This document shows positions 19,478 through 20,200 of a stretch of 64,000 nucleotides of DNA, in pieces (positions within the stretch are counted from its first letter, which is position 1; each line of letters begins with the position of its first letter). The DNA is from Bacteroidota bacterium (GTDB taxonomy: Bacteria; Bacteroidota; Bacteroidia; NS11-12g; UBA955): positions 131,817-195,816 of the forward strand of contig JAURFW010000002.1 of the NCBI GenBank assembly GCA_030834125.1. The letters are read 5' to 3'. The notes beneath the pieces were generated by a model. That model was not told the origin of the DNA and did no database searches. It saw only the letters and a program-made list of their open reading frames with translations. The position numbers and the translations under genes are program-made.

Positions 19478-20200
19478 TTGCTCAATATCACCATGTCTGA
19501 ATCTAAAAGACCCGATAATCTCAACCAATATTTCCAAGCGGCGGTTTCCGTCGATAATGTTGTTTTTGGTTTCGATAATGAGGTTCTAAAAATTCTTTTG
19601 ATATATCGAGGAGCCGAACCCTATAAAAATTATTGGGCACTCCCAGGAGATTTAATTAACCTAGAATCTGATCTTGATAATTCTGCGGTAAATGTACTCC
19701 AATCATTAACAGGATTAGATGATATTTTCATGGAACAGATTCGCACTTTTGGCCGTGTTGATAGACACCCATTCGGAAGGGTTTACACGGTTGCATATTA
19801 CTCATTAATTAAATCAGAAGATTATAAAGTTTCTGCGCAATCATGGGCGGAAGAAGCAGATTGGTTTCCAATTTCAAAACTTCCTGAGTTACCGTTTGAC
19901 CATAATGAGATTGTTGAATTTGCAAAGCAACAATTGAAGATGCGCATCCGCGTCCAGCCAGTAGGGTTTGAGTTACTACCTAAATATTTTACCTTATCTG
20001 AATTACAAAAATTATACGAGGCAATATTAGAAACAGAATTCGATGTTCGTAATTTTAGAAAGAAAATATTATCTACTGGATTTATATTAGATACAGGATT
20101 AAAACAAACTGGCGTTACCCACAGACCTGCTAAATTATACAAATACAACGCAAAACGCGATTATAGTATTATCAGTTCAGGAATGAATTTTGATTTGTAA
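19478..20200 (+). CDS. NrtR/AraR-family transcriptional regulator (Nudix-like sensor domain plus C-terminal winged helix)
   Basis: The Nudix fold has a degenerate Nudix box ([24 protein letters not shown]) lacking the REx2EE catalytic residues. The C-terminal block [28 protein letters not shown]...RPAKLYKY is typical of the NrtR wHTH. It is the last gene of the PUL. Confidence 0.7.
   Translation: [240 protein letters not shown]

Follow-up and report, generated by a model that had tools for sequence, protein, structure and literature searches.

What controls a polysaccharide utilization locus (PUL) that has no hybrid two-component system (HTCS), SusR, BguR-type, or extracytoplasmic function (ECF) regulator at its flanks? 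This question is raised by a 64,000-nucleotide (nt) stretch of DNA from a Bacteroidota bacterium (hereafter, the window), where a SusC/SusD locus with glycoside hydrolases of families 144 and 3 (GH144 and GH3) is followed, at 19493–20200, by a gene for a Nudix-like protein with a C-terminal DNA-binding domain (hereafter, the regulator). We consider it likely that this protein is a cytoplasmic repressor with a dead Nudix domain, which would repress its own gene, control the GH144 PUL, and be released from DNA by a sugar derived from β-glucan. What we observed are the identity of its domains, the loss of the catalytic motif, a conserved operator and its placement, and copies of this operator at PUL promoters.

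The open reading frame (ORF) of the regulator was confirmed on the + strand. Its mechanical start, a TTG codon at 19478, yields the 240 amino acids (aa) given in the original prediction. The end at 20200 is real, but an ATG codon at 19493, which yields 235 aa, is favored by the gene call in L016, a near-identical public genome, and by the aligned N-termini of orthologues; the TTG codon falls within the −7-like promoter box described below. The start is thus likely ATG 19493 rather than TTG 19478. The coding sequence at 19493–20200 (+ strand, 235 aa and the stop codon) was annotated as an AraR-like (NrtR-family) regulator from the ORF, the L016 call, the orthologue alignment, the solved structure 5bs6, and an AlphaFold2 (AF2) model.

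Residues 155–221 of the regulator matched the Pfam families NrtR_WHD (1.4e-25, 89.6 bits, cut-off 27) and AraR_C (1.7e-15, 57.5 bits, cut-off 23.8), from which the winged-helix domain was annotated at 19964–20143 (+ strand). The closest solved structure was that of Bacteroides thetaiotaomicron AraR (BtAraR; 5bs6, E = 3.8e-48, residues 18–222), and the second solved relative was Shewanella NrtR (SoNrtR, E = 6.7e-26). The AF2 model had a predicted local distance difference test (pLDDT) score of 88.5 and a predicted template modeling (pTM) score of 0.84. When it was used as a Foldseek query, AraR chains were returned first (TM scores of 0.77–0.83, 36–39% identity), followed by SoNrtR, 2fml, and NadQ. 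The model matched the full-length AraR and NrtR structures, in which a Nudix fold is followed by a C-terminal NrtR-type winged helix-turn-helix (wHTH). By sequence and model, the regulator is therefore a two-domain NrtR/AraR-type protein of the sugar-responsive AraR/XylR branch, which is a known family. The NrtR/AraR-type DNA-binding domain proposed in the original prediction was supported by all of these comparisons, as was its choice of AraR as the relevant relative, BtAraR being the closest characterized one.

The Nudix-fold domain, which is the predicted ligand-binding part (residues 18–138; 19544–19906, + strand), was recognized from alignments with BtAraR and SoNrtR and from a Pfam NUDIX match of 17.8 bits, under the gathering score of 21.1 bits. 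Its Nudix box (residues G52–L75; 19646–19717, + strand) was read directly from the sequence and compared with the signature GX5EX7REUXEEXGU, using the register given by the BtAraR structure, with the terminal T-G-L as anchor. At the box positions, G38 was replaced by D53, E44 by S59, R52 by N67, E53 by V68, E56 by S71, and E57 by L72. The equivalents of R52, E53, E56, and E57 were absent in either possible register, and residues 63–75 contained no acidic residue. The box had already been described as degenerate; the stretch then quoted lies at residues 52–74 and has lost REx2EE in both registers, but its register was one residue off in the BtAraR alignment. Relatives with up to 62% identity retain R52 and E56, like AraR, and the subclade of the window has lost both. 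Judged from these residues, the Nudix domain of the regulator is catalytically dead. Some homologues are called '8-oxo-dGTP diphosphatase' or 'NUDIX hydrolase' by their sources, which, together with the weak Pfam NUDIX match, would suggest an active Nudix hydrolase. Given that no Mg-binding or catalytic residue is left in the box in either register, that the NUDIX score is sub-threshold, and that a wHTH and a conserved operator are present, we give this reading practically no credence.

The residues of the pocket suggest what the domain would bind instead. In BtAraR, R34, R86, and H131 hydrogen-bond L-arabinose (PMC4666351). This triad corresponds to R39, R91, and H137 of the regulator, which were invariant in 36 clade members. 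In the regulator, A, L, and F stand where SoNrtR has the residues that contact the ADP part of ADP-ribose (N43, K76, and R98). The pocket lining also shows clade-specific differences from BtAraR (F36>A41, G48>D53, F49>L54, D87>H92, and G89>F94), and from the arabinose-pocket set of F36, G47-G48-F49, V92, and F129 the regulator keeps only G47, V92, and F129. Since the triad is kept while the SoNrtR contacts and the AraR lining are changed, the domain looks like a sugar pocket, unlike an ADP-ribose pocket or the arabinose pocket. The substitutions of F36 and F49 take away bulk where AraR packs on C4/C5 of the pentose, and F36>A, F49>L, and G48>D were counted together as opening space at this contact. 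A pocket with these changes could accommodate a hexose or a bigger sugar.

The same residues bear on whether the protein could be a genuine NrtR, which would repress NAD metabolism and respond to ADP-ribose. The NrtR_WHD match would fit such a protein, and the NCBIfam NtrR model was the best family match (E = 2.8e-43), but its score of 148 bits compares with an equivalog cut-off of 400. SoNrtR (3gz5, 3gz6, 3gz8) has the same fold and domain order (TM ~0.68) and is likewise a repressor with a palindromic operator. In contrast to it, the regulator has neither the ADP-ribose contacts nor an equivalog-level score, and NAD genes were found in none of the loci examined. We see next to no chance that the regulator is an NrtR in this sense.

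A putative autoregulatory operator was found upstream of the gene. It is a perfect palindrome, ATTATTGTA-GAAAA-TACAATAAT (19454–19476), with arms of 9 + 9 nt and 100% complementarity, and it finishes 17 nt before the ATG codon. No other exact copy of TTGTA-N5-TACAA occurs in the window. Among the genome loci whose protein is 70–92% identical, each of the 15 had the core ATTATTGTA-N5-TACAATA 5' of the orthologous gene (15/15), and further loci with a regulator identity of 66–76% had it as well. Across 19 non-identical orthologue upstream regions, a block of ~33 bp was almost totally conserved amid otherwise unalignable DNA. A 27-nt position weight matrix derived from the autoregulatory sites gave one strong operator site per orthologous locus; this matrix was over-fitted to the promoter flanks and missed the susC sites described below, and a core-pattern search was used instead. 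A CRP-type site was also considered and rejected because of the spacing, as TGTGA-N6-TCACA has 10 nt between TGT and ACA and the motif here has 7 nt.

Two other inverted repeats were noted in the upstream regions of relatives. In L001, CTTTTGTAAGAATACAAAAG (L001 9935–9954) lies just 5' of the operator, has operator-like half-sites, and is without a counterpart in the window. It was rejected as a second operator, as its spacer is N4 and it is probably a hairpin. A perfect long hairpin, CCAAAGTTCAACCGnnnnCGGTTGAACTTTGG, occurs in L002, L003, and L012–L015 at ~90–120 nt 5' of the regulator start, upstream of the operator, and probably represents either a repeat element or a terminator for the gene before it.

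The crystallized operator of AraR is GTGT-N7-ACAC with a length of ~21 bp (PMC4666351), and the half-site geometry of the palindrome, TGT-N7-ACA, is the same as that of the BtAraR operator. The recognition helix of the regulator, D184-V185-R186-N187-F188-R189-K190-K191, is encoded at 20042–20065. The BtAraR DNA contacts R180, N181, K184, and R205 are retained in the regulator, and two are altered, K179 to V185 and K204 to H210. K179 of BtAraR touches the first G of the GTGT half-site (PMC4666351), and V185 at this position coincides with a T replacing that G.

BtAraR (BT0354; 5bs6, 5deq, and 5ddg; PMC4666351), an L-arabinose-responsive repressor of the NrtR family, thus resembles the regulator in its two-domain architecture and fold (TM ~0.8), its impaired Nudix box, its R/R/H triad, the four retained DNA contacts, and the operator geometry; its sites have also been predicted at SusC/D PUL promoters. 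The regulator differs from it by a more degenerate Nudix box, which lacks the R52 and E56 kept in AraR, by the five changes in the pocket lining, and by K179>V with T for G in the half-site. It also differs by its genomic context, which comprises GH144, GH3, GH16, and GH81 genes rather than ara genes; the araMPRDAB/arabinan clustering of the AraR group was not found in the window and related loci, and the half-site is TTGTA in place of that of GTGT-N7-ACAC. If the regulator were orthologous to one of the pentose sensors, AraR for L-arabinose or XylR for xylose, this would explain why AraR is the best match in the Protein Data Bank and why the sugar triad is conserved. Such orthology is extremely improbable in view of the structure-based identity of only 36–39%, the replacement of F36, G48, F49, D87, and G89, an operator of TTGT-N7-ACAA instead of GTGT-N7-ACAC, and the presence of β-glucan enzymes, with no arabinose or xylose catabolic genes, in the ~25 loci examined. 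B. thetaiotaomicron XylR (BtXylR; BT0791), compared by context only, shares the Bacteroidetes-specific sugar branch with the regulator and was likewise predicted from genomic context, which is xylose utilization in its case and β-glucan in that of the regulator.

The consensus of Bacteroidetes promoters consists of TTTG at −33 and TAnnTTTG at −7. A putative −33-like TTTG element of the regulator promoter (19449–19452, + strand) belongs to a T-rich/TTTG block conserved just 5' of the operator. A putative −7-like element, TAATATTG (19473–19480, + strand), was recognized by orthologue comparison and overlaps the right arm of the operator. The −7-like box reads TATATTCG in most orthologue loci, and in L030 and L041 it is the exact consensus TATATTTG (TAnnTTTG). 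The palindrome thus appears to fill the spacer between the two elements, the position expected of a repressor, and we predict negative autoregulation because a protein bound in the promoter spacer would block RNA polymerase. Downstream, the transcription unit is closed by a terminator-like hairpin (20345–20372) that is shared with the convergent tRNA-Pro gene. PUL regulators of Bacteroidota are often activators (HTCS, BguR), and binding of the palindrome might instead recruit RNA polymerase when sugar is present. Activation is nevertheless very unlikely, given that the operator fills the −33/−7 spacer and abuts or overlaps the −7 box in a manner typical of repressors, that BtAraR is a repressor released by sugar, and that NrtR is a repressor too.

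Does the regulator also control the PUL beside it, as the original prediction had proposed for the SusC/D locus? In the search that this proposal called for, in the region upstream of susC (7527–7628) and the other intergenic regions, the canonical operator was found at 19454–19476 and two degenerate copies were found at susC. The distal copy, TTGTA-ggaaa-TAAAA (TTGTAggaaaTAAAA; 7555–7569), is a one-mismatch match that has lost the C of its right half-site. The proximal copy, TTCTA-taaac-AACAA (TTCTAtaaacAACAA; 7579–7593), was recognized by homology to the sites of relatives and has lost the G of its left half-site; the two copies are 24 bp apart, and 7 nt separate the proximal one from a conserved TAAATTGC (7601–7608) on its 3' side. 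The chance of a one-mismatch site in the 102-nt susC upstream region is ~0.01–0.02, and this match taken alone is suggestive at most.

To compare susC promoters among relatives, we searched with the SusC protein and then retrieved the contigs of the orthologues. In the sister genome L033 (GCA_038153365.1; 93.9% nt identity over 20.6 kb), the homologous positions of the susC promoter carry TTGTAtaaaaTACAA, a perfect site, and TTGTAtaaatCACAA, 24 bp apart. This period equals that of the tandem AraR sites, in which a 21-bp motif is followed by a 3-bp gap. The susC promoter sites of more distant PULs were TTGTAagattCACAA in L037/38 (SusC 73%), TTGTActtttGACAA in L040 (SusC 66%), and CTGTAcaattGACAA, with two mismatches, in L035/36 (SusC 76%). 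In L035, L037, and L040, the right arm ends 5–7 nt 5' of a conserved TAAATTGC/TATATTGC block. Outside the motif, the compared susC upstream regions have diverged past alignment. Because the sister genome has two tandem sites at its susC promoter, we place the PUL in the regulon and conclude that, in the lineage of the window, the GH144 PUL promoter is a predicted target of the operator–regulator pair.

In the window strain itself, these sites seem to have decayed. Outgroups keep an intact TGT...ACA at the proximal site, which is thus ancestral there, and the G>C change of the window is therefore derived. The 300-bp block at 7501–7800, comprising the susC promoter and the first codons, was the most diverged one between the window and L033 (74.7% identity, versus a mean of 94%), and the identity of the regulator gene was ~94% in its promoter region (with 5 differences in 83 nt) and 98–99% in its coding region. 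As both susC copies in the window have lost a key G or C, we predict that repression of the PUL is weak or absent in the window strain. The whole PUL was also seen to be a mosaic of blocks with 84–99% identity to L033, compared with 97–99% in the housekeeping flank, which suggests recombination or relaxed/diversifying selection. Compared with P0001/L016, the regulator differs in one residue (K5 versus Q5) and the operator spacer in one base (GAAAA versus GGAAA), and in the same comparison SusC of the window was only 95% identical to that of the deposited genome GCA_038153365.1; these differences indicate that the window strain is a distinct close relative of GCA_038153365.1.

The orthologous loci allowed us to trace the history of the locus. 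L018 (66%) and L041 (76%) share the upstream genes of the window (PAP2, PEPCK, alaS, gidB, and a family 2 glycosyltransferase, GT2); in both, GT2 is directly followed by the regulator and a GH3 gene, with no PUL. A GH81 protein secreted by the type IX secretion system (T9SS) is added in L018, where an AAA+ ATPase follows further downstream as in the window, and the L041 contig ends after GH3. In L001, a 92% relative, the PUL is followed by the regulator and then by the partner GH3 (L001 10708–13017). This partner GH3 is present in almost all orthologous loci and absent from the window and L033, where the space between regulator and AAA+ ATPase is taken by genes for tRNA-Pro and tRNA-Arg (20373–20540 in the window, − strand) instead. 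The synteny of L018, L041, and L001 indicates that an older regulator–GH3 pair stood next to GT2 before the GH144 PUL entered between them, and that the partner GH3 was lost later. In relatives with 70–74% identity, regulator and GH3 lie beside a convergent susC/susD/PKD/GH16 PUL of laminarin type. Other orthologue loci have the regulator, then genes without a Pfam family, and then GH3 and GH16, and in L019 and L032 the motif was found 5' of T9SS-secreted proteins and GH16.

This history makes room for a different set of targets. The regulator might be an autoregulated repressor of GH3 and of β-1,3-glucan (laminarin-type) genes, beside which the GH144 PUL landed and where it stays uncontrolled in the window strain. 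The syntenic regulator–GH3(–GH81) loci without a PUL, the laminarin-type neighborhoods of the 70–74% relatives, and the fact that the only canonical site in the window is autoregulatory while the susC sites are degenerate would all agree with this. We nonetheless regard it as rather unlikely, since the homologous susC promoter of L033 has two good tandem sites, distant GH144 PULs retain the motif with constant spacing to the promoter box, and neutrality is hardly to be expected of an insertion exactly beside a β-glucan regulator.

The contexts also bear on the effector. The original prediction suggested a sophorose-type disaccharide, which has become unlikely, since orthologues occur beside GH3, GH16, and GH81 loci that have no GH144 PUL. 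The pocket residues were constant across the GH144, GH3, GH16, and GH81 (β-1,3-glucan) contexts. Because the contexts have β-glucan breakdown in general in common and the pocket is constant, D-glucose or a generic short β-glucoside is a more likely effector than sophorose in particular.

Several results weigh against control of the GH144 PUL by the regulator. In the window, no canonical operator was found in the susC upstream region 7527–7628, where the copies carry one and two mismatches, which fall on the most critical positions, and none was found at the divergent promoter of the esterase and second GH144 genes. Across the whole window, 10 sites matched TTGTA-N5-TACAA with at most one mismatch and 5.8 were expected, which is not above chance. 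Among the orthologous PULs, L039 has no operator site upstream of susC. The chance that at least four of the six susC regions would have a site with at most one mismatch was 1.6e-6 by shuffling; this value counts for the link to the PUL but overstates its significance, because the six susC promoters are homologous and not independent. The link to the PULs of L035, L037, and L040 is motif identity alone, as no regulator gene was found within 10 kb of them; NrtR-, HTCS-, and BguR-type genes were all absent from these 10-kb surroundings, and the only adjacent regulatory gene was one of the LysR family in L040. The regulator predates the PUL at its chromosomal position, so that their adjacency is weak evidence. 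For marine Flavobacteriia, control of GH144 and laminarin PULs is reported for a different regulator, the membrane protein BguR (bioRxiv 10.64898/2026.01.10.698779).

With these points taken into account, repression of both its own gene and the GH144 PUL remains our preferred account of the regulator, for which we infer dimerization, the direction of repression, allosteric ligand release, and the kind of effector. The regulator would act as a cytoplasmic one-component repressor, a homodimer that combines a Nudix sugar pocket with a wHTH. Without ligand, the dimer would bind ATTATTGTA-N5-TACAATAAT and occlude the promoter. Binding at its own promoter would cause negative autoregulation in all loci, and binding elsewhere would repress the partner GH3 where it is present and susC-led transcription of the PUL where the sites are intact. 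A small sugar would reach the cytoplasm by uptake after GH144 and GH3 have acted in the periplasm. In AraR, sugar binding rotates the wHTH domains (PMC4666351). The sugar would be bound by R39, R91, and H137 of the regulator, the wHTH domains would swing apart as in AraR, and the DNA would be freed.

A bolder proposal, which we hold only tentatively, is that the regulator clade is an unrecognized trans-acting master switch for β-glucan in environmental Bacteroidota. It would sense glucose or a short β-glucoside and control β-1,2- and β-1,3-glucan PULs as well as T9SS-secreted proteins through TTGTA-N5-TACAA, in parallel to BguR or in its place, and the window strain would represent a natural variant with operator decay whose β-1,2-glucan PUL is no longer repressed.

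BguR, which spans the membrane, is a one-component activator for laminarin and GH144 PULs of marine Flavobacteriia (bioRxiv 10.64898/2026.01.10.698779). Like the regulator, it is linked to PULs of two kinds, for β-1,3-glucan and for β-1,2-glucan, but it is an unrelated protein of 940 aa, with a periplasmic β-propeller sensor, a transmembrane helix, and a GerE HTH, which senses in the periplasm and activates. A further comparison is AusR of the alginate PUL of Zobellia galactanivorans (PMC7641319), a cytoplasmic PUL repressor of an environmental Bacteroidota that is released by a breakdown product; it differs in belonging to the GntR family and in its class of ligand. In the literature that we covered, which was incomplete, no papers beyond those on AraR/XylR were found that tie Nudix/NrtR-type regulators to laminarin, GH144, or β-glucan PULs.

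The genes of the PUL were annotated as follows, all on the + strand unless noted. The locus begins with susC (7629–10661; Pfam Plug), susD (10642–12141; Pfam SusD_RagB and SusD-like_3), and a gene for a LamG-like surface protein (12164–13057; Pfam). A first GH144 gene (a; 13059–14762) encodes an endo-β-1,2-glucanase homologue whose best structural match was the Chitinophaga endo-β-1,2-glucanase 5gzh (E = 1.8e-135). It is followed by a GH3 β-glucosidase gene (14764–17109), with matches to the periplasmic β-glucosidase 5xxl (E = 2.4e-222) and to Lin1840 (4zoa), which we take to be GH3 enzymes of the type active on sophoro-oligosaccharides. Together, these genes (7629–17109) make the locus a predicted β-1,2-glucan PUL with SusC/SusD, GH144, and GH3. 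An esterase-like α/β-hydrolase gene (17066–17944, − strand; Pfam Abhydrolase_2 and Peptidase_S9; 284 aa in the L016 call) is convergent with GH3, and their 3' ends overlap by ~44 nt (17066–17109). A second GH144 homologue (b; 17973–19409; Pfam PF10091, 1.7e-63) lies directly 5' of the regulator promoter. The flanks are formed by GT2, gidB, and alaS on one side and by tRNA-Pro, tRNA-Arg, and the AAA+ ATPase on the other. The latter (20682–23303) is an 873-aa protein with two AAA+ modules, each with an AAA_lid_6 domain, and ~300 N-terminal aa without a Pfam match; in L018, too, it lies in synteny on the downstream side of the regulator region.

The five-gene core susC-susD-LamG-GH144-GH3 (SusC 66–77% identical) recurs in wholly different neighborhoods, at L035 3383–12767, L037 10001–19427, and L040 10001–19521, and it looks like a mobile or often relocated PUL module. 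Only the lineage of the window has, in addition, the esterase and the second GH144.

Other genes recurred near the regulator or the PULs in relatives. In L013 (2216–8943) and L032 (10751–16547), the regulator is followed by four to five co-oriented genes (~620, 575, 335, and 245–385 aa) and then by GH3 and GH16; this conserved cassette has no SusCD, and its proteins have no Pfam match or only weak ones (GH2_C-like, CBM30-weak). A conserved protein of ~1,075–1,100 aa without a Pfam family is encoded immediately 5' of the regulator in L005 (6591–9899), L027 (6765–10022), and L030 (6681–9908), where the orthologues are 66–72% identical. Repeat proteins with a T9SS Por_Secre_tail and otherwise no Pfam family, with 36–62% mutual identity, were found at L037 19692–20972, L035 14483–15280, and L027 20253–20810 (partial). 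This family adjoins both GH144 and laminarin-type PULs, two operator-like sites (19574 and 19629) lie 5' of its member in L037, and its proteins may be secreted β-glucan-binding or -degrading proteins.

PUL regulation outside gut Bacteroides is almost uncharted, and according to the 2026 preprint on BguR, a single regulator of a marine PUL had been validated until then (bioRxiv 10.64898/2026.01.10.698779). The regulon model proposed here comprises a defined protein, a 23-bp operator, target promoters in several lineages, and candidate effectors, and the window strain and its sister genome L033 form a natural experiment in operator decay. Our results also correct the annotation ('NUDIX hydrolase' or '8-oxo-dGTP diphosphatase') carried by many of the ~4,800 homologues detected. 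The regulator family itself was already known; what is new is a predicted β-glucan-responsive subfamily of AraR-like repressors, which would extend the principle of AraR and XylR, the Nudix pocket as a sugar sensor, from pentoses to the products of β-glucans.

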